From NCBI GenBank assembly GCA_944389185.1, contig CALXLL010000001.1:24061-88060 (forward strand): 64,000 bases of DNA. The letters are read 5' to 3'. This document shows positions 1 to 51,081 of this stretch, piece after piece. The number at the start of each line of letters is the position of its first letter. Position 1 is the first letter of the stretch. A program made the translations under genes and the position numbers. A model generated the notes under the pieces. The model searched no databases. It saw only the letters and a list, made by a program, of their open reading frames with translations, and was not told the DNA's origin. The stretch is from an uncultured Alphaproteobacteria bacterium. Its GTDB lineage: Bacteria; Pseudomonadota; Alphaproteobacteria; Rs-D84.

Positions 1-37
1 AGCGTATAAGCGACTGATAAAAAATAAGGCGTAAGTA

Positions 38-592: not shown

Positions 593-3098
593 TAATATTT
601 TTTATTCGACCAACCCCGCAAAAATGTTGGATGCTTTATGGCTTTTGTTGCAAAAGTCTTCTGTTCCACTGGAAAAAGTGCTGATATTTCTTCCAAGTAG
701 ACGTGCAGTCAGAAGCGTTGAAAAAATGTTGGTTCAAAAATCTGGTCACAGTGTATTATTACCAGAATTAGTTGCTTTGGGTGAAGGCTTGGAAGACGAA
801 GAAAAATATAATGATGAATCTTTGCCAGATGTAATTTCTAATATGGAAAGGACTGTCATTTTGGCTAAACTTTTATCAGCGGATTCGGGAATAGGGTCTT
901 TATCTGCTGCTTTACCGGTTGCGCGTGATTTAGTTCGTATGCATAATTATCTTGAAAACGAAGGCGTTAATATAGCTGATATTGATTGGATGGGCTTGGT
1001 AGATGAAAAATATGCAGACCATTTTCAACATAAAGCAAAATTATTAAATATACTTTCTTCCGTATTACCAAATTGTGCGAATGGAAGAATTACAGAAACT
1101 CAAAAACAAAATAAAGATATTCGTTCTTGGATTGACTTTTTAAAGTCTGATAAATGTGATAAGGATTTAATAGTCGTTTGTGGTTCTACGGCCAGCGTTC
1201 CCGCAACGGCTGATTTAATGGAATATATTGCTGGTTCTGATAAAGGTAAAATAATTTTATCTGGTAAAATATCAGGCAGAGAGCAAGATTTTATATTAAA
1301 TACTAATCCTTATAATGCAGAATATAAGTTTTTACAAAGATTGGGAATAAATCAGAAAGATGTATTACCTATTGACGTTGGAAATAGTGCAATAGATTTT
1401 TTTAACTCGGCTTTTGGAAACGATACAACGGATATACCCGAATATAGCTTGGATAATTGTAAGCTGATAGAATGTGCACGTGAAAGTGAAGAAGCTTTAA
1501 CCGTTGCAGTTATAGCAGAGGAAGCAATTAAACAAAATAAAAGCGTTCTTGTTATAACACCTGATGCAGCTGCAAATCAAAGAATTGCTAATGTTTTATC
1601 TGCACGCAATATATCCGCCGATTTTTCTGCTGGTAGACCCGGTAATATGACTTATGCGGGCAGGGCCGTTTTGAATATTTTTGACTATTGGATAGATAAT
1701 GAAAAATCTGAAGATTTTTATAAGTTATACGCACAAGAAAATTATGACTTATTTAAAACAATTTCTGTCTTGGTTGATAGTAAACAGGATTTATTAGAAC
1801 CTTTGTTTGATTTACAAGATGCCGAGTCCTTGCAAATATGGCAAGCTATTAAAAAATTATCAGACAGCTTGAACGCTGCAGAAGTTAAGTTGTCTTTGTC
1901 TGACGCAAGGGCTTTCATTGCTGATGTTATATCAACGGTTTCTATCAGGGAGGAAATGAAAGATGACGTCGATGTTGTGGTTCTGGGAACGATAGAATCA
2001 AGAATGCAAACGGCTGATGTAATTATATTGACCGGACTAAATGACGGTATGTTTCCAGCTGTTGGATATGAAAATGCTTGGTTGCCAAGAAGTATAGGCG
2101 AAAAGATAGGACTGCCGTCACCAGATAGAAAAGTATCATTGATGTCTTTGGATTTTATGAACCTGTCTTGCGGAAAAGAAGTTTATTGGTTAAGAAGTAA
2201 AGTTTCCGGTGGGGTCCAGACAATAGAATCTCGCTTTATATCAAGAGTCATGGTAAAACATGGAAATATATGTTTGGACCAAAGTTTCCTTGGTAAAGCC
2301 CGAGATTTTGATAACGTTATATCAATACCATTAGATTATAGTGCACCAAATCCTCCTGTTGATTGGTCTGATGTATATGTTACAGAGCTTGAAAAATTAA
2401 TAAACAATCCATATGCTTTTTATGTTTCACATATACTAAGATTAAAGGTTTTGGATGATTATTGGGTTATACCAGATGCAAGGAAGTTCGGTAATTTGGT
2501 TCATGAATCTATTCAAAAAGTAAAAAATAGAACACCAGAAAATCTGATTGCTGATATGGATAGGAGAGCTTTGGAAATATTAGGGAAAGATAGTGTATTA
2601 TTTTATTTCTGGCATAAAAGATTCGTAGAAATGGCGCCACTTATTTCTAATGTCATAAATCAGATACCAGAAGGGCTTTTCGAAATACAAGGTCAGGTCA
2701 ATATTAAAAAAAGAAACGTTAAAGCAAGAGCTGATTTTGTTTGGAGCGGCGGTGTAATTGATTTTAAGACAGGGGCGGCACCTAAGAAGTCTCAGCTGCA
2801 AGACGGAACTATGCCACAATTACCGCTGGAAGCATATATATTAAAGCAAGGTGGATTCCCTGTAAAACCGAAAAATCCTGCATATACACCGATAATGATG
2901 TTTCTGCAATTAAAAAATAAAAATGTTAAACCTATTGTATATGAAGATACAGAAGCCGAAAATATGATAAACGCAGCAGTGCTTGAAACTGAAAAATTAT
3001 TTGATTGGTATAGCAGCGGAAAACTTCCGTATGTATATAAAGAAACCAATGACGCCAAATATAAAAATTATGATGATTTAGCGCGAAGATTTGATTGA
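579..3098 (+). CDS. addB: Double-strand break repair protein AddB (inactive helicase fold plus C-terminal PD-(D/E)XK nuclease)
   Basis: IFLPSRRAVR, GSTASVPATA, LGTIESR, GLNDGMFP, NPYAFY, ARAD...IDFKTG, PQLPLEA; TTG start overlapping the engB end. Confidence 0.88.
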   Translation: MALNNNIFYSTNPAKMLDALWLLLQKSSVPLEKVLIFLPSRRAVRSVEKMLVQKSGHSVLLPELVALGEGLEDEEKYNDESLPDVISNMERTVILAKLLSADSGIGSLSAALPVARDLVRMHNYLENEGVNIADIDWMGLVDEKYADHFQHKAKLLNILSSVLPNCANGRITETQKQNKDIRSWIDFLKSDKCDKDLIVVCGSTASVPATADLMEYIAGSDKGKIILSGKISGREQDFILNTNPYNAEYKFLQRLGINQKDVLPIDVGNSAIDFFNSAFGNDTTDIPEYSLDNCKLIECARESEEALTVAVIAEEAIKQNKSVLVITPDAAANQRIANVLSARNISADFSAGRPGNMTYAGRAVLNIFDYWIDNEKSEDFYKLYAQENYDLFKTISVLVDSKQDLLEPLFDLQDAESLQIWQAIKKLSDSLNAAEVKLSLSDARAFIADVISTVSIREEMKDDVDVVVLGTIESRMQTADVIILTGLNDGMFPAVGYENAWLPRSIGEKIGLPSPDRKVSLMSLDFMNLSCGKEVYWLRSKVSGGVQTIESRFISRVMVKHGNICLDQSFLGKARDFDNVISIPLDYSAPNPPVDWSDVYVTELEKLINNPYAFYVSHILRLKVLDDYWVIPDARKFGNLVHESIQKVKNRTPENLIADMDRRALEILGKDSVLFYFWHKRFVEMAPLISNVINQIPEGLFEIQGQVNIKKRNVKARADFVWSGGVIDFKTGAAPKKSQLQDGTMPQLPLEAYILKQGGFPVKPKNPAYTPIMMFLQLKNKNVKPIVYEDTEAENMINAAVLETEKLFDWYSSGKLPYVYKETNDAKYKNYDDLARRFD

Positions 3099-3101
3099 TT
3101 C

Positions 3102-3872
3102 TTATATTATACTTATCATCAAGCCACAATGGTCTGTAGGTTTTTCTGCAAGTCTTGGATCTATATCTATTTCTGAACCTCTTATTATGTCCATTGCCTT
3201 CTTATTAGCTAAGAAATAATCAAGACGCAAACCTTGACGATTACCAACTGTATCACGACCACGATAACCATACCAAGTATAGTCTATGTCTGTCGGATGA
3301 AAATGCCGCCATACGTCAACCCATCCCATGTCTAACCATTCTTGCATTATTTCACGAGCGGCCGGTGCAGATATACTGCTTCCTTCATAGTTTTTAGGTT
3401 TCCATATATCTTTATCTTGAAGCGCTACATTAAAGTCACCGCCGATTATCACAGATTCTTGGGCGTTAATATATTGCGATATATATTTTGTAAAAGCATT
3501 CATCCAGTTAAGTTTATAAGGAAACTTTGGTGAATCTATGGCTTCACCGTTTGGCATGTATACGTTTATAAGTCTTATTCTGCCGTCAATGACACAATTT
3601 ATAAGTCTTGCGTTTGTGTCCGGAAAATCGGGCATACCGAAACTGACGTCTTCAATAGAGTTTTTTGAAAAAACGGCAACGCCATTCCAGCTTTTTTGCC
3701 CGAATACTTTTATATTATATCCAAACTCGTCAAATAGCATATGTGGAAAATTAGCGTTTTCTACTTTAAGTTCTTGCACAAGAATTGTGTCATATTCGCC
3801 GGAACGTAAAATATCCATAAAACTTTCTATGTGCGCGCGGATAGAGTTTATATTTAATGTAAGTATTTTCAT
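3102..3872 (-). CDS. xth: Exodeoxyribonuclease III
   Basis: Likely start MKILTLNINSIR at 3872; QELK, WNGVA, YMPNG, GDFNVA, YTW, GLRLDY, TDHC. Confidence 0.95.
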   Translation of the reverse strand: MKILTLNINSIRAHIESFMDILRSGEYDTILVQELKVENANFPHMLFDEFGYNIKVFGQKSWNGVAVFSKNSIEDVSFGMPDFPDTNARLINCVIDGRIRLINVYMPNGEAIDSPKFPYKLNWMNAFTKYISQYINAQESVIIGGDFNVALQDKDIWKPKNYEGSSISAPAAREIMQEWLDMGWVDVWRHFHPTDIDYTWYGYRGRDTVGNRQGLRLDYFLANKKAMDIIRGSEIDIDPRLAEKPTDHCGLMISII

Positions 3873-20577: not shown

Positions 20578-21856
20578 AATGTTTACCACCAATTTTAGTT
20601 CTGCCGCCCATCAATGCTTGCAGCTTTTTTGGAATATTTATAGAACCATCTGCATTTTGATGATTTTCTATTATTGGGACCAAAGCACGCGGAACCGCTA
20701 TGCCTGTATTATTAAGCGTTGCAACGTATTTTACTTCACCTGTTGCGTTTTCACGATATCTGGTGTTTGTGCGTCTTGCTTGGAATTGACCTATGGACGA
20801 GCAACTGCCAAGTTCTTTATAGGCGTTTTCGCTTGGAACCCATGCTTCTACGTCATTCATCTTTATTTTGTTAAAGCCCATATCACCAGTAGAATTGGCA
20901 ATAACCCTGTAAGGTAATTCAAAATCTTCCATTACTTCACACAAATTATTCAAAATTAATTCGTGCATAGCGTCAGAGTCTTCAGGTTTACAATATACAT
21001 ATTGTTCTACTTTATTAAATTGATGAAAACGTGCAAGACCACGAGTATCCCGACCAGCCGCACCGGCTTCTTTGCGGAAACACGGTGAAAAACCGGCGTA
21101 TTTAATAGGCAGGACATTTTCAGGTAATATTTCACCGCTATGAAGACTGTTTAATATTATTTCCGCTGTTCCTGCAAGGCATCTGTCTGTTCCTTGTAAA
21201 ATAAATACATCATTGTCCATTACAGATAAGTCAGACCCCATAAAGTGACCGGCGTTAAATATGGTTTGCGGTTTCGTTATTGCAGGGCATTCTATAAATG
21301 TAAAACCTTTGGATATAAGCTTTTGGATAACATAAGTTTCTATAGCTAGCTGTAATTCCGCGGCTTCACCGACCAAGCAATATGTTCTTGTCCCACATAT
21401 TTGTGCTATCTTTTCAGGCATCCACCAATTATTCATATCCAATAAGTCCCACTGTGCACGTGGGGTAAAATCAAACTTTGGTGGTTTGCCAACTCTGCGA
21501 ACTTCAACGTTTGCGCTGTCATCAGGACCAATTGGGGCTTCTGGGCTTGGTATCTGAGGAACGCGATGTAACAAGTCATTTAATTTATCTTCTTTTTCTG
21601 CTAATTCGGCAAGCTCTTCTGCTATCTCTTCACCGATTTCTTTTGATTTTGCAATAAGCGGTGCTTTGTCTGTCGCAGTAGGTATTTCTTTTGTTATTCT
21701 GTTCTTTTCTGCCGTTTTCGTTTGTGTAAGCGTTTTTAATTCGCGAACACGCATATCAAGTGCAAGTATTTCATCAGTAAAATCTTCAAACCCCTTTACT
21801 TTACATGCGTTTTTTACAATTTCTGGGTTTTCACGAATAAATCTTATATCCAACAT
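20576..21856 (-). CDS. serS: Seryl-tRNA synthetase
   Basis: Likely start MLDIRFIRENP at 21856 with AAAGGA RBS; TAE, motif 2 CFRKEAG..RFHQFNKVE, motif 3 TLNNTGIAVPR. Confidence 0.97.
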   Translation of the reverse strand: MLDIRFIRENPEIVKNACKVKGFEDFTDEILALDMRVRELKTLTQTKTAEKNRITKEIPTATDKAPLIAKSKEIGEEIAEELAELAEKEDKLNDLLHRVPQIPSPEAPIGPDDSANVEVRRVGKPPKFDFTPRAQWDLLDMNNWWMPEKIAQICGTRTYCLVGEAAELQLAIETYVIQKLISKGFTFIECPAITKPQTIFNAGHFMGSDLSVMDNDVFILQGTDRCLAGTAEIILNSLHSGEILPENVLPIKYAGFSPCFRKEAGAAGRDTRGLARFHQFNKVEQYVYCKPEDSDAMHELILNNLCEVMEDFELPYRVIANSTGDMGFNKIKMNDVEAWVPSENAYKELGSCSSIGQFQARRTNTRYRENATGEVKYVATLNNTGIAVPRALVPIIENHQNADGSINIPKKLQALMGGRTKIGGKH

Positions 21857-21917: not shown

Positions 21918-21971
21918 TTATTCCCCAAAAGGGGATGATGATTTATTAAAAAAACTTGTTTTTAACCACAT
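21918..21971 (-). CDS. Putative serS leader peptide MWLKTSFFNKSSSPFGE
   Basis: 17-codon ORF with TCA TCA TCC run plus one AGT, ending 61 nt before the serS ATG; overlaps TCCCC-TTTT-GGGGA hairpin. Confidence 0.75.
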   Translation of the reverse strand: MWLKTSFFNKSSSPFGE

Positions 21972-21978
21972 GGTTAAA

Positions 21979-22007
21979 ATTATATATAAATTATATATAA
22001 AAATCAA
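21979..22007 (-). promoter_or_regulatory. sigma70-type promoter for the serS leader
   Basis: TTGATT (22007-22002), 17 nt, TATAAT (21984-21979); leader ATG begins 8 nt after the -10 box. Confidence 0.75.
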
Positions 22008-43985: not shown

Positions 43986-44861
43986 CTAGCCTCGATTTAT
44001 AAAGTCTATCACAACATTTATATATTCTGAAAATGCGTTAAAAGTCTCTAATTCGTCTTTATCTGTGGGCGTCGGATCCGCAGGGTTAGACTTTATGAAG
44101 TCTGCTAGCTCTGATATAGAGTTGAATATAAATATATCGTCGTTGTTATCAGTTGTATCAGATGGTTTAAATATAAAAGCATTTATGTTTATTGTTAAAT
44201 CTTCAAGACTGTCTACGAATAATTTATTTAGTTCTGTAACTGCTTGCTTCATTTCTAGCGTGGAAATGTTCTCGGCGCCCATCCATACAACTTCATTTGG
44301 GGCAATTGCAAATAAAACTGTTTTTATACCCGATATATTAGGAGTCTTTTTTATTGTGTATCCATATCTTTTAAAGATGTCTATGATATCGTCTTTTTGG
44401 GTTGTATACGATGGTTCTATTGGTAAAGTTTTTGGTGTGCTGTCGTGTATCACTGGAATATGTTGAATGGTTTGTTTTGGCAGGTTTAATTTTGGTGGTC
44501 GTATATCGCTGTATGAAGATGTGGGTGTGGACTGCAAAGTTTTTTCTTCGTTGATATCTGTGTTTTCTTTATCTTTGGTTTGGTTTGAAGTGTTTGTTGC
44601 TGATGCAAAGTTTATTTTTCTAAATCTTGGTCTTATTATAATATACAAACCAAGTAATGTTATTAATGTTGCAATCGCTAAAGAGATATAAAAAGACACA
44701 TTTACGGAATTATTGGTTGCTTGTAGTTGCGCCAGGTATGACCAATGCGCACCAGAAAATAAGTCAAAACCAAATCTTATGTTAAACCAAAAGCTTGTAG
44801 CTAAAACTGCTGCAAGCAGCCAAAGTATACCAAGTAAAAAGTTATCTATTCTTTTTTTCAT
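43986..44861 (-). CDS. Two-TM membrane protein with Pro/Thr-rich linker and cytoplasmic domain
   Basis: Two N-terminal hydrophobic helices, low-complexity linker, alpha/beta C-terminal domain. Confidence 0.75.
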   Translation of the reverse strand: MKKRIDNFLLGILWLLAAVLATSFWFNIRFGFDLFSGAHWSYLAQLQATNNSVNVSFYISLAIATLITLLGLYIIIRPRFRKINFASATNTSNQTKDKENTDINEEKTLQSTPTSSYSDIRPPKLNLPKQTIQHIPVIHDSTPKTLPIEPSYTTQKDDIIDIFKRYGYTIKKTPNISGIKTVLFAIAPNEVVWMGAENISTLEMKQAVTELNKLFVDSLEDLTININAFIFKPSDTTDNNDDIFIFNSISELADFIKSNPADPTPTDKDELETFNAFSEYINVVIDFINRG

Positions 44862-48426: not shown

Positions 48427-49168
48427 GTCAAAAAAAGAAATTCGCACAAAGTTAAAGCAAGTGAAAAAAGATAAGCATGCTTCAAGATTGCTTCGTATAT
48501 TAAGAGCAACAGGGCTTTTTCGTTGGGAACGTCCTTCAACTAAATCAGAAGAAGTTTTGAACATTTTGACGCACGGTATTGGTATAGGTTTGGCTATTGC
48601 AGGTTTAACTTTGCTTGTCGTGTTTGCTTCTTTGAAGGGTGATCCTTGGGCTATCGTATCTTGCGCTATTTTCGGTCTTACCATGTTTACTTTGTATTTC
48701 GGGTCTACAATGTGTCATGCAACAATCGGAAAAAAGAGCGAATGTTTCTTTGAGGTTTGGGATAGCGCTGCTATCTATGCGTTGATAGCCGGCACATACA
48801 CGCCTTTTTTACTTGTTAATCTAAGAGGTGCTTTGGGGTGGACAGTGTTCGGTATTTTATGGGCTATCGTTATATTCGGTTCTATTATGAAAATGCGCAG
48901 CCCAAAGCAACAACCAAAGTGGATGGTGCTTTTATATCTTATTATGGGGTGGACTTTGATCTTTATTTTACCCGCTATGTTAAAAGCAATACCTGCGCGC
49001 GGTTTATGGTTCATCTTGGCAGGCGGTTTGTCTTATACTATCGGAGTCATTTTCTATGTATGGCGTAAAATGAAGTATTCTCACGTAATTTGGCACTTGT
49101 TCGTTATTGCCGGCAGCGTTTGTTTCTTTTTCGCCGTTTTGTTCGGTTGCGTAATAGACGTAATATAA
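48419..49168 (+). CDS. Hemolysin III / PAQR family membrane protein
   Basis: EEVLNILTHG, S..CH, D.AAIY.LIAGTYTP, GG..YT.G, HVIWHLFV. Confidence 0.92.
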   Translation: MVKSKKEIRTKLKQVKKDKHASRLLRILRATGLFRWERPSTKSEEVLNILTHGIGIGLAIAGLTLLVVFASLKGDPWAIVSCAIFGLTMFTLYFGSTMCHATIGKKSECFFEVWDSAAIYALIAGTYTPFLLVNLRGALGWTVFGILWAIVIFGSIMKMRSPKQQPKWMVLLYLIMGWTLIFILPAMLKAIPARGLWFILAGGLSYTIGVIFYVWRKMKYSHVIWHLFVIAGSVCFFFAVLFGCVIDVI

Positions 49169-49170
49169 GA

Positions 49171-49199
49171 TTGACTTAGCGACTTTTTGGTATTAATAT
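49171..49199 (+). promoter_or_regulatory. sigma70-type promoter for the thrS leader
   Basis: TTGACT (49171-49176), 17 nt, TAATAT (49194-49199). Confidence 0.7.
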
Positions 49200-49209
49200 A
49201 AAGCTTGTT

Positions 49210-49269
49210 ATGAATTATTTTTGTAAGATTTTCTTTATAACTAATACCACAACCCCTTTGGGGGTATAG
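49210..49269 (+). CDS. Putative thrS leader peptide MNYFCKIFFITNTTTPLGV
   Basis: 19-codon ORF with ACT AAT ACC ACA ACC, ending 78 nt before the thrS ATG; overlaps ACCCC-TTTG-GGGGT hairpin. Confidence 0.75.
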   Translation: MNYFCKIFFITNTTTPLGV

Positions 49270-49347
49270 TTTCTATTTGCGATTGTTCGCGCTCTTTTAT
49301 ATAATCTGTTTAATTAAAAAAATAATAACAATAAAAGGATTTTTATT

Positions 49348-51081
49348 ATGTCTTATCCAATTGAAATGATGCGTCATTCTCTGGCTCATGTTATGGCGGC
49401 CGCCGTTCAAAAATTATTCCCAGATGTTAAGTTCGCAGGTGGACCTGCTATCGAAAATGGTTTCTATTATGACTTTGATACAGAACACCGCTTTTCAGAA
49501 GAAGATTTCGATAAAATTGAAAAGGAAATGCGCGATTTGATAAAGTCTAATGGACGATTTGAACAAAGAAACGTTAGCCTGGAAGAAGCAAAAGAAATAT
49601 TCGCTAATCAACCTTATAAAATGGAGTGGTTGAACGAATATGATGCAGCAGGTGAAGCCTTATCGATATATACTTTTCGTGATTTCGTTGATTTATGTCG
49701 CGGACCGCACGTCGAATCTTCGAAAGATTTACCAAAAGACGGTTTCAAAATTAAAACTGTTGCTGGAGCTTATTGGAAGGGTGACTCTAAAAATAAAATG
49801 CTGCAACGTATTTATGTAGATGCTTTCGCAAGCGCAGAAGAATTACAAGAACATCTTAAAATGATGGAAGAAGCCGCAAACCGCGATAACAGAAAACTGG
49901 GTAAAGAAATGGATTTATTCCATTTTGAACCTGATTATGCTCCGGGTGCCGTTTTCTGGCATGATAAAGGTTATAGAATCTATCGTCGTTTAATAGATTA
50001 TATCCGTATGCGCCAAGAAAAAGCAGGTTATCTGGAAATATCTACACCTTCTGTTATGGATAGGTCTTTGTGGGAACGTAGCGGTCACTGGGCTAAATAT
50101 GGCGAGCATAATTATTCCGGTAAAACCCAAGACGGTAAAACTTTCTGTGTAAAACCTATGTCTTGTCCCGGTGGAATGCTGGTGTTTAGACAAGGTATTA
50201 AGTCTTATAAAGATTTACCTATGTATCTTGCCGAATTCGGCAAAGTAAATCGTTACGAGGCTGCTGGCGGTTTGTCTGGGCTTATGCGCGTGCGTGAGTT
50301 TACTCAGGACGACGCTCACATATTTTGCACAGAAGAACAATTAGAAGAAGAAGTAGTTAAAGTTTTGCGCTTTATCAAAGATATTTATAGTAAGTTCGGA
50401 TTCGATAAAATATCTATGAAACTGGCAACAAGAAAAGAGTCCGAATTCCGTATCGGTTCAGATGAAATATGGGATAAAGCTGAAGGCGCGTTAAAGCATG
50501 CTTTGGATGCAAACGGTATCGAATATGAAATTGCCGAAGGTGACGCCGCTTTTTATGGACCAAAGATTGATAATTACTTGAAAGATTCTATGGGGCGCGT
50601 ATGGCAGTGCGGAACGGTGCAGTTAGATATGAATCTTCCTGAAAGATTTGACTTATCTTATATCGGGGAAGACGGAGAAAAACATCGTCCGATTATGTTG
50701 CACCGTGCTATGCTGGGGTCAATAGAACGTTTTATGGGGATTTTGCTAGAATCAACAGGTGGTAATTTACCTTTGTGGTTGTCACCAGAACCTGTAGTAG
50801 TAGTTCCTGTCTCCGAAAGATTTAAGGATTATGCAGAAGAAGTAGTTAATTCTTTGGAAGAGGTCGGTGTTAAATGTCATGCTGACTTGCGCGACGAAAA
50901 GGTTAACTATAAAATCCGTGAATTATCTTTATCTAAAACACCGATTATAGCCGTGGTCGGTGAAAAAGAAATGACAGATAAAAACGTAACTTTGCGTTAT
51001 CTTGGACAAGAAAAACAAGAAGTTATGCCTTTGGCTGATTTCGTAGAGAAAATGAAAAACGAAGTAAAAATGCCGAAGTAA
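49348..51081 (+). CDS. thrS: Threonyl-tRNA synthetase (no N-terminal TGS domain)
   Basis: RHSLAH, DLCRGPH, KPMSCPG, GLMRVREFTQDDAHIF, AFYGPK, HRAMLGSIERF. Confidence 0.98.
   Translation: MSYPIEMMRHSLAHVMAAAVQKLFPDVKFAGGPAIENGFYYDFDTEHRFSEEDFDKIEKEMRDLIKSNGRFEQRNVSLEEAKEIFANQPYKMEWLNEYDAAGEALSIYTFRDFVDLCRGPHVESSKDLPKDGFKIKTVAGAYWKGDSKNKMLQRIYVDAFASAEELQEHLKMMEEAANRDNRKLGKEMDLFHFEPDYAPGAVFWHDKGYRIYRRLIDYIRMRQEKAGYLEISTPSVMDRSLWERSGHWAKYGEHNYSGKTQDGKTFCVKPMSCPGGMLVFRQGIKSYKDLPMYLAEFGKVNRYEAAGGLSGLMRVREFTQDDAHIFCTEEQLEEEVVKVLRFIKDIYSKFGFDKISMKLATRKESEFRIGSDEIWDKAEGALKHALDANGIEYEIAEGDAAFYGPKIDNYLKDSMGRVWQCGTVQLDMNLPERFDLSYIGEDGEKHRPIMLHRAMLGSIERFMGILLESTGGNLPLWLSPEPVVVVPVSERFKDYAEEVVNSLEEVGVKCHADLRDEKVNYKIRELSLSKTPIIAVVGEKEMTDKNVTLRYLGQEKQEVMPLADFVEKMKNEVKMPK

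Follow-up and report, generated by a model that had tools for sequence, protein, structure and literature searches.

The thrS locus and its leader

The stretch of DNA analysed here, hereafter the window, comprises 64,000 nucleotides (nt) of the genome of a Candidatus Enterousia bacterium of the order Rs-D84 (assembly of 796 kb in 15 contigs, 37% G+C), and the element under study is the leader that precedes its threonyl-tRNA synthetase (ThrRS) gene, thrS. Reading towards thrS, the leader is composed of a promoter (P1), an ATG, an open reading frame (ORF) of 19 codons, a small hairpin (hairpin 1), the stop codon, a U-rich tract and a second promoter (P2) that carries another hairpin (hairpin 2) in its spacer (Table 1). 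Much of this had been recognised in an initial annotation made from the letters of the DNA, which reported the P1 boxes TTGACT-17-TAATAT, a Thr-rich ORF with four Thr in five codons abutting ACCCC-TTTG-GGGGT, and a second small stem GCGA-TTGT-TCGC, followed by GCTCTTTTAT, after the stop. All of these elements are found in place when the sequence is read again, P1 and both stems also in a consensus scan. P2 (TTGCGA-17-TATAAT, 49277-49305) was absent from that annotation and outscores P1 as a promoter match (10/12).

The peptide encoded by the leader ends in T-N-T-T-T-P-L-G-V, its Thr codons being ACT (49240), ACC (49246), ACA (49249) and ACC (49252). Hairpin 1 begins within the last of these codons and the stop codon lies 1 nt past its stem. 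No Shine-Dalgarno sequence precedes the leader ATG. With an Asn codon interrupting its four Thr codons and its ATG placed 10 nt after the -10 box, the window copy stands at the weak end of the range observed among relatives.

It is important to remark that the features of the window alone carry little weight. The consensus scan returned promoter-like and terminator-like elements in numbers no better than those of shuffled sequences (8 versus 10.3 expected and 4 versus 3.1 expected, respectively), so that a single window proves nothing and the case for non-chance is comparative. At the genome level, ACCCC-N3-5-GGGGT occurs once in 796 kb, and no upstream short ORF starting with ATG, other than the thrS leader, has at least four Thr in six codons.

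Table 1. Features of the thrS leader and of related leaders in the same genome (asterisk, stop codon)
Feature	Position	Strand	Basis or remark
P1 -35 box TTGACT	49171..49176	+	Sequence reading and consensus scan; 17-nt spacer
P1 -10 box TAATAT	49194..49199	+	Sequence reading and consensus scan
Leader ORF MNYFCKIFFITNTTTPLGV* (thrL-like), 19 codons	49210..49269 including stop (49267-49269)	+	Sequence reading
Putative regulatory codon run ACT AAT ACC ACA ACC (T N T T T)	49240..49254	+	Sequence reading
Hairpin 1 ACCCC-TTTG-GGGGT (arms 49252-56, 49261-65)	49252..49265	+	Sequence reading and consensus scan
U-rich tract TTTCTATTT after stop, candidate termination or pause zone	49270..49278	+	Sequence reading
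P2 -35-like box TTGCGA	49277..49282	+	Consensus scan; last bases form the 5' arm of hairpin 2
Hairpin 2 (T)GCGA-TTGT-TCGC(G), core 49279-49290	49278..49291	+	Consensus scan and covariation
P2 -10 box TATAAT	49300..49305	+	Consensus scan
thrS Shine-Dalgarno AAGGA, A-rich stretch	49335..49339	+	Sequence reading; no conserved predicted structure
thrS, ThrRS of 577 amino acids, no N-terminal TGS domain	49348..51081	+	ORF; Pfam tRNA_SAD, tRNA-synt_2b, HGTP_anticodon
serS leader ORF MWLKTSFFNKSSSPFGE*	21918..21971	-	Ser run; serS ATG at 21856
serS hairpin UCCCC-UUUU-GGGGA	21922-21935	-	Same CCCC-N4-GGGG module as thrS
serS leader TATAAT box	21979-21984	-	7 nt before leader ATG
hisS leader MFYNALFFAGFHHTRMGGCF*	G000, outside window		Hairpin begins in second His codon; then UGUUUCUAG and TGATATAAT box
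trpS leader MIDFDSYFVNLVWWRR*	G000, outside window		UGG inside GC stem
lysS leader MKINSKKSYN*	G000, outside window		Antiterminator (GUGCG:CGCAC) and terminator with U-run
ileS leader MKQLNIIIIR*	G000 contig C3 (L107), outside window		Canonical terminator
cysS leader MRLFNINIYCCQSFH*	G000, outside window		GCAAAC...GUUUGC hairpin

Conservation and distribution of the leader

The comparison with relatives provides the evidence that the window itself could not give. The arrangement is present in all of the first 25 thrS upstream regions (the window's own, 23 from the same genus and one from the family f5), and a second f5 genome (G032, genus g8) likewise possesses it, encoding MKLTQIFFFITTTTPLGE*. 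A set of 80 named thrS loci, reduced to 78 by two that come without upstream DNA, contains 53 leaders, and these correspond to 53 of the 54 loci whose ThrRS is at least 74% identical to that of the window, the exception being L083. The named records with 74-89% identity are Candidatus Enterousia or 'uncultured Alphaproteobacteria/Rickettsiales' metagenome-assembled genomes (MAGs) from animal and human guts. The other 24 loci, at 50-61% ThrRS identity, are devoid of the leader, and those sampled from this group (L079, L080, L085, L086, L089, L092 and L094) encode a longer ThrRS with an N-terminal extension.

The features of the leader were quantified in 76 distinct leader sequences from relatives, 75 of which make up the alignment. 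The frame is open in every one of the 76, with three to eight Thr among the last eight codons before the hairpin. AC is fixed in these Thr codons and the third base is free to vary (A in 213, T in 97, C in 93 and G in 22), yet the run always closes with ACC, the rarest Thr codon in the long ORFs of the window's genome, where three tRNA-Thr genes with anticodons CGU, GGU and UGU are found. Loss of the Thr codons in relatives, which the initial annotation regarded as evidence against its own reading, is thus not what the comparison gave. A TAnnnT box precedes the ATG by 4-10 nt in 76/76 (7 nt in 32 sequences, 9 in 23, 10 in 10 and 6 in 9), and a TTG lies 17 nt upstream of this P1 -10 box in 67/76. 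Since the ATG follows the -10 box so closely, the P1 transcript is predicted to start at the ATG or within a few bases of it, and is probably leaderless. The distance from the ATG to the hairpin is 33-45 nt, and the stop codon begins 2 nt past the G-run in 66/76. Judged by these patterns, the leader is probably a translated, leaderless ORF under selection for threonine.

Beyond the genus, 22 further thrS loci of Rs-D84 were fetched, three of which had no placeable start. Among the remaining 19, a Thr leader with CCCC-N4-GGGG was found in nine, belonging to families f1, f2, f3 (genera g14-g16) and f6, and the ten loci lacking it are all eight of genus g3, one of f2 (genus g2) and one of f4. The thrS leader consequently spans five families of the order (f1, f2, f3, f5 and f6). 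In some f2 and f5 leaders the stop codon falls inside the hairpin loop, as in MKENFVILHFSTTTTP*. The f6 leader precedes a ThrRS starting with MIHISFPDG or MIQISFPDG, an N-terminus that we take to be a TGS domain; the window ThrRS has no Pfam match to this domain. ThrRS proteins of 640-660 amino acids starting with MIKITFPDG or MVAIKLPDG were also observed in other Rs-D84 families and in relatives with about 60% identity (L085-L106, L300, L303 and L308).

When the pattern was scanned for across the class, 23 of 401 genomes gave a match, but so did many (untallied) with the pattern reversed as a control. Among 11 of these loci that were checked, only the one in G118, a genome from outside the order, lies about 95 nt before a thrS homologue, where it encodes MSWIVNKTTTRLTTTP*; the other ten are located in long ORFs or away from thrS. 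On this distribution, the leader is best read as old within the order Rs-D84, repeatedly lost, and seldom found in the rest of the sample.

The two hairpins and the second promoter

The four C-G pairs of hairpin 1 are invariant in the 75 aligned sequences and its loop varies. The mean folding energy of this hairpin is -8.0 kcal/mol, and the 14 nt that follow it contain 7.4 U on average (76 sequences), the commonest tail reading GTAATTTCTATT or GUAAUUUCUAUU. Both hairpins pass a loose terminator scan, hairpin 2 often without a U-tract; the canonical terminators of these genomes have long stems and U-runs.

Hairpin 2 behaves in a different manner. A stem of at least 4 base pairs (bp) is found in 73/76 sequences, and it covaries at two positions (TGCGG/CCGCG, TGCGC/GCGCG, TGCGA/TCGCA, TGCAC/GTGCG and TGCGT/ACGCA). 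Its mean stem length of 5.11 bp exceeds the 4.65 bp obtained with 200 chimeric controls (standard deviation 0.09, maximum 4.89), and the U-G closing pairs on the + strand are consistent with an RNA hairpin in the sense transcript. This covariation identifies hairpin 2 as a real RNA hairpin. As the actual termination or pause element, the role suggested for it in the initial annotation, it is no more than a candidate, given that the stem lies inside the conserved P2, often lacks a U-tract and has no counterpart at hisS.

P2 takes the form TTG-16..18-TAnnn(T/A/C) in 63/76 sequences, 40 of them with an exact TATAAT, and the remaining 13 show by eye TGnAATAAT or a similar extended -10 form. In the 75-sequence alignment, the columns of TTGC and ATAAT show no or almost no variation, and the predicted 5' untranslated region has a median length of 38 nt. 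P2 is therefore taken as the predicted promoter of thrS itself. The predicted P2 start lies downstream of hairpin 2, so this hairpin would be present in P1 transcripts only, where it possibly acts as a back-up terminator or as a stabiliser of a short transcript.

The region around the thrS Shine-Dalgarno sequence shows no consistent pairing, either in per-sequence folds of 25 sequences or in an RNAalifold consensus of 75.

Structures and families absent from the leader

No known regulatory RNA family accounts for the leader. An Rfam search of positions 48900-49600 at E values up to 10 retrieved neither a T-box (RF00230) nor any other family, its three weak matches to small RNAs (sau-13, rliB and ARRPOF) being meaningless, and at the gathering level the whole window yields nothing at the leader and one tRNA elsewhere. 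The Thr_leader family (RF00506) is not among the weak matches at E values up to 10 and has no gathering-level match in the window. An operator of the type described for E. coli thrS would require an anticodon-like loop, and no such loop is conserved: the loops of both hairpins vary, and both hairpins stand at least 55 nt upstream of the Shine-Dalgarno sequence. The absence of a T-box and of an E. coli-type anticodon mimic, as perceived in the initial annotation, is thereby borne out. Binding of ThrRS to an anticodon-like loop was considered because the UUGU loop of the window's hairpin 2 holds UGU, and it was rejected on account of the lack of conservation of that loop.

Other candidates were discarded in a similar way. 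Pairing of the hairpin 1 loop (CGCG or UGCG) and the G-run with the 3' arm of hairpin 2 was rejected as a general mechanism, since it is absent from the forms with UUUG and GUUG loops. The thrS ribosome-binding site can pair with the Thr codons or with the TATAAT box, but in single species only; an Hfq-type (ARN)n motif in the ACA repeats is contradicted by third positions that vary among all four bases, and a site for a global regulator is at odds with a palindrome that the genome contains just once. Nor is there conservation of a small ORF that begins with the TTG of P2, relatives running into stops within 2-5 codons. The genome encodes Rho, and Rho-dependent termination was not preferred, the A-rich and C-poor spacer of about 80 nt giving no reason for it, and no further test was made. 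A genome-wide scan for inverted repeats in promoter spacers produced 23 candidates, uneven in quality and not forming a clear class. On contig C1 (about 136124-136152, outside the window), a fully palindromic and apparently bidirectional promoter-like sequence, TTGTAA...TTACAAT, was observed between divergent genes.

Cognate leaders before other synthetase genes

The strongest argument for a sensor of charged tRNA comes from the rest of the window's own genome (G000). A scan for residue-rich short ORFs, together with inspection of the aminoacyl-tRNA synthetase (aaRS) genes with long upstream gaps, revealed cognate-codon leaders before six further genes, namely serS, hisS, trpS, lysS, ileS and cysS (Table 1; those outside the window are on contigs C3, C13, C8 and C7, loci L107-L111). 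The enriched residue is in each case the amino acid of the downstream synthetase, a correspondence that also argues against an unrelated small gene. In this manner the comparison lends support to the Thr-tRNA-sensing attenuation that the initial annotation had proposed for thrS alone.

These leaders are conserved to different extents among the loci of the genus. By eye, a Ser-run leader with hairpin was recognised in 12/30 serS loci, and some of the serS leaders of relatives also have the TTGCGA-loop-TCGCA...TATAAT module. An upstream ORF with at least two His precedes hisS in 27/30 loci. The hisS hairpin was tested in 23 of these 30, after five without a clean pick and two rows that were mis-picked or variant had been set aside; 81% of the cells pair, three pairs change on both sides, and 0-1 of 500 shuffles scored as high. 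The trpS leader (WW in G000) is found in 9/20 loci, the cysS leader with two to five Cys (CC in G000) in 16/20 and the ileS leader with three to five Ile in 16/16. The antiterminator and terminator of lysS are present in 24/24, with KK in 12 and K-R in the other 12 (by eye).

The leaders of thrS, serS and hisS share a hairpin placed at the last sensed codon, a similar tail (GGGGUGUAAUUUCUAU in thrS versus GGGUGUGUGUUUCUAG in hisS) and a promoter that follows, and they are read as being of common origin on these resemblances. An aromatic, U-rich motif (VFF, IFF or SFF, with codons UUU and UUC) was observed right before the sensed codons in the same three leaders. Possible reasons for it are pausing at this point, the need for a 5' end free of structure or an action of the nascent peptide.

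Proposed mechanism

Taken together, these observations favour a ribosome-mediated attenuator that reports the charging of tRNA-Thr, in which a ribosome stalled on the Thr run masks hairpin 1; we assign to this reading a probability of about 0.68. P1 would give rise to a leaderless or nearly leaderless transcript encoding a short peptide that ends in the Thr run, with the last Thr codon, ACC, and the Pro codon after it constituting the 5' arm of a small all-GC hairpin directly followed by the stop and the U-rich tract. When Thr-tRNA is plentiful, ribosomes would pass the run and exit at the stop, allowing hairpin 1 to form, and most P1 transcripts would end or stall in the U-rich tract just before P2, which would supply the basal thrS mRNA. 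When Thr-tRNA is scarce, a ribosome would wait at any of the three or four final Thr codons with its footprint over ACCCC, hairpin 1 would be blocked, and P1 transcripts would continue through P2 into thrS and add to the basal level. The ribosome itself would be the antiterminator, making an alternative RNA pairing unnecessary. According to footprint and toeprint data, the cover of a ribosome extends about 12 nt beyond its A site, a distance spanned by the Thr run of 4-7 codons; this reach places the last three or four Thr codons of the run close enough to mask ACCCC.

In folding with and without a ribosome footprint, the check proposed in the initial annotation, hairpins 1 and 2 recur, and no conserved antiterminator emerges once the 5' arm of hairpin 1 is removed as a mimic of the stalled ribosome. 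The freed GGGG then pairs elsewhere in 44/76 sequences, with partners that vary by species (the adjacent AUUUCU, the 3' arm of hairpin 2 or distant stretches), and these differing partners mean that the classical three-hairpin layout does not apply.

Several points weigh against the masking attenuator. No antiterminator is conserved in the folds of 25 sequences, in the 5'-truncated folds of 76 or in the RNAalifold of 75, the last of which gives hairpin 1 only. Hairpin 1 is a weak terminator candidate, with 5 bp and an interrupted U-tract that starts 4 nt past the stem. It never covaries, and the synonymous change of ACC to ACU is never seen, so something besides pairing appears to constrain it. 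A closely coupled ribosome that is not stalled would also melt hairpin 1, and the expected polarity needs an assumed pause of the polymerase. The first codons of Thr runs of six or seven are too far upstream for a ribosome stalled there to reach the hairpin, and P2, as predicted, confines the control exerted by the leader to part of thrS transcription. Finally, the leader can be lost, being absent in some close relatives (L083) and in whole genera (g3).

A broader proposal is that thrS, serS and hisS carry copies of one leaderless attenuator cassette, re-targeted by exchanging the sensed codons alone. The cassette would consist of a promoter, a short hydrophobic ORF, the cognate run, a minimal GC hairpin starting at the last sensed codon, the stop, a U-rich tract and the promoter of the gene, and would form an aaRS 'ribulon' with a sensor of about 60 nt, other designs serving trpS, lysS, ileS and cysS. 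This extension is put forward tentatively, and our doubts about it somewhat outweigh our confidence.

Alternative explanations

The same arrangement could operate with the opposite outcome, in the manner of pyrBI, active translation of the leader bringing about read-through and an early-held or absent ribosome leaving hairpin 1 to end the P1 transcript. Scarcity of Thr-tRNA would in that case lower P1-driven thrS expression, or this expression would chiefly follow translation capacity. Such a mechanism would make sense of an ORF that traverses hairpin 1 and stops 1-2 nt beyond it in 66/76 sequences, of the want of a conserved antiterminator, and of long Thr runs whose first codons lie more than 12 nt upstream of the stem. 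However, the regulatory codons of hisS, trpS and serS are situated in or at the 5' arm, where any stall masks the hairpin, and these genomes also contain, at lysS and ileS, leaders of the classical type, where a stall promotes read-through. To our knowledge, wherever control of an aaRS gene by a T-box or a leader peptide has been characterised, low charging leads to induction, which we also count against the opposite polarity, and we regard it as unlikely. An effect exerted after transcription appears quite unlikely as well. A ribosome stalled 25-45 nt from the 5' end, or the hairpins, would here alter the stability or processing of the P1 transcript, as in the erm leaders of Bacillus, and control would not be exerted at termination; a trans effect of the short leader RNA, comparable to that of rnTrpL in Sinorhizobium, might also occur. 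In favour of this idea, both hairpins depart from the canonical terminator form, no role with a partner is evident for the covarying hairpin 2, and rnTrpL, as described in the excerpted text of PMC6614838, is a precedent within the Alphaproteobacteria. Against this idea, the thrS ribosome-binding site is not sequestered, its A-rich stretch remaining open in the folds, and the ileS and lysS sister leaders carry clear intrinsic terminators.

The invariance of hairpin 1 deserves separate consideration, since arms that are conserved without covariation in 75/75 sequences around four variable central nt are the usual signature of a protein site, and P2 is conserved too. The palindrome ACCCC-N4-GGGGT, about 50 bp upstream of the predicted P2 start, might accordingly be a DNA operator to which a dimeric regulator of P2 binds, the ORF being incidental. 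This explanation is very unlikely, however: the site occurs only once in the genome, conservation of the frame, the Thr codons and the spacing of the start codon does not depend on the palindrome, serS keeps CCCC/GGGG with the outer pair swapped in such a way that the outer base follows the cognate codon, and the counterpart hairpin of hisS covaries. Least probable of all is that the ORF is a separate small gene for a hydrophobic peptide of 19 residues, with its own promoter and terminator, which lies near thrS by chance or for co-expression and senses nothing. The conserved ORF does have a promoter of its own and an N-terminal half that is hydrophobic and repeatedly contains an FF motif, but the sequence of that half varies freely, the C-terminal residues are dictated by the hairpin, and a peptide unrelated to sensing would hardly be enriched, before seven genes, in the residue of the synthetase downstream.

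Neighbouring genes and further observations

Upstream of the thrS leader lies a gene for a HlyIII-family protein, ending at 49168, and before it a gene for a GluRS-like protein. Parts of the stretch were found in one metatranscriptome and in two 'metagenomic RNA-Seq' runs, as contigs only, which are uninformative on transcript starts, ends and levels; gaps in their coverage carry no meaning.

Some other synthetase genes of the genome are also preceded by elements of interest. A T-box-like element was observed before aspS (contig C1, about 2940-3157; L113:142-294; outside the window), with the motif AGGGTGGCACCGCG, the only one in the genome. Its Rfam T-box match is weak (29.3 bits, E value 7e-4, below the gathering score of 93), and a possible GAC specifier was noticed by eye. 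T-boxes are unusual in Alphaproteobacteria and occur mainly in Firmicutes. Before metG (contig C3, about 44100-44250; L112) there is a five-codon ORF encoding MRMQN*, a terminator GACGCCC...GGGCGUC with a U-run and a possible competing ACGGG:CCCGU pairing, and a tiny ORF encoding MEY* precedes tyrS. A tRNA gene with its own terminator stands directly before the ileS leader (L107:408-480; anticodon read by eye as CGU, Thr), and tRNA genes are likewise located before the metG, lysS, cysS and valS/leuS upstream regions.

Significance

According to excerpts of the published description, Enterousia is assigned to the order Rs-D84 and has genomes below 1 Mb that lack amino acid, nucleotide and lipid pathways (PMC12306168). 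In a lineage without amino-acid biosynthesis, the aaRS genes are natural targets of control. In these reduced-genome gut Alphaproteobacteria, at least seven synthetase genes are apparently under the control of short, mostly leaderless sensory ORFs, with a T-box-like element at aspS. If this is confirmed, no broader set of aaRS leader peptides in one small genome would be known to us, and one sensor cassette would clearly have been re-used for different amino acids; the very compact single-hairpin design might then be put to use as a portable sensor of amino acids. Such short ORFs very probably escape the automatic annotation of these MAGs. Once flagged, leader ORFs would be testable markers of the amino acids that are limiting for an uncultured symbiont.

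Comparison with known systems

Accounts of aaRS control in proteobacteria usually draw on a small number of E. coli examples, namely the thrS operator and the pheST leader. In Bacillus, thrS is preceded by a T-box leader, and in E. coli by an operator that mimics the anticodon. Both control the same gene by sensing either the charging of tRNA-Thr or the level of ThrRS, but the Rs-D84 thrS leader presents neither a T-box match nor a conserved anticodon-like loop. In the leader peptide pheM of the E. coli pheST operon, which is an aaRS operon, and likewise in thrL of thrABC, a short ORF with cognate codons senses the charged tRNA by stalling and controls read-through. These leaders differ in having a Shine-Dalgarno sequence, mutually exclusive terminator and antiterminator structures and a canonical U-run, whereas the Rs-D84 leader is predicted to be leaderless, shows no conserved antiterminator and has no Rfam match. 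The single-hairpin logic is shared with E. coli pyrBI, whose leader ORF runs through one terminator hairpin and in which the outcome depends on where the ribosome stands with respect to the polymerase, with no antiterminator involved; there, UTP is sensed through polymerase pausing and no cognate codon run exists.

Leaderless leaders have been described before aaRS genes outside the proteobacteria. In Streptomyces lividans TK24, RNA-seq identified thrL-thrS, alaL-alaS, trpL2-trpS and leuL2-leuS, and thrL encodes MKRVRPFLETTPGFVPAR* with one hairpin and no U-tract, as given in excerpts of that study (Droste et al. 2021, PMC8079986). The resemblance to Rs-D84 extends, as far as those excerpts go, to a leaderless short ORF before thrS, a single hairpin without a clear U-tract, the equipment of several aaRS genes and a peptide that also contains T-T-P-G. 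The two systems differ in that S. lividans is an actinobacterium with a large GC-rich genome and that its thrL has two Thr codons, compared with three to eight in Rs-D84; the excerpts make no mention of a CCCC/GGGG stem starting at the last Thr codon or of a second promoter. The S. lividans leaders come from RNA-seq, and that of Rs-D84 is known from sequence comparison alone. In mycobacteria, polycysteine leaderless ORFs block a structure that sequesters the ribosome-binding site, and the term 'ribulon' originates from that work, which is quoted here from excerpts (Canestrari et al., bioRxiv 10.1101/834739). As they describe it, the 'Cys ribulon' likewise relies on leaderless sensory ORFs with a cognate run, a stalled ribosome that blocks an RNA structure and several loci that respond together, but its targets are genes of cysteine metabolism and those in Rs-D84 are aaRS genes for at least seven amino acids. 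Unlike in that system, the thrS ribosome-binding site lies about 70 nt away, is unstructured and shows no conserved pairing.

In the full-text literature searched, whose coverage excludes subscription journals, no aaRS leader peptides were described for Alphaproteobacteria or Enterousia, and none of the Enterousia papers listed deals with gene regulation. Therefore, the principle of aaRS control by leader peptides, including leaderless ones, is known, and what is new is the lineage, the single hairpin embedded in the ORF, the second promoter and the wide set of aaRS genes involved.

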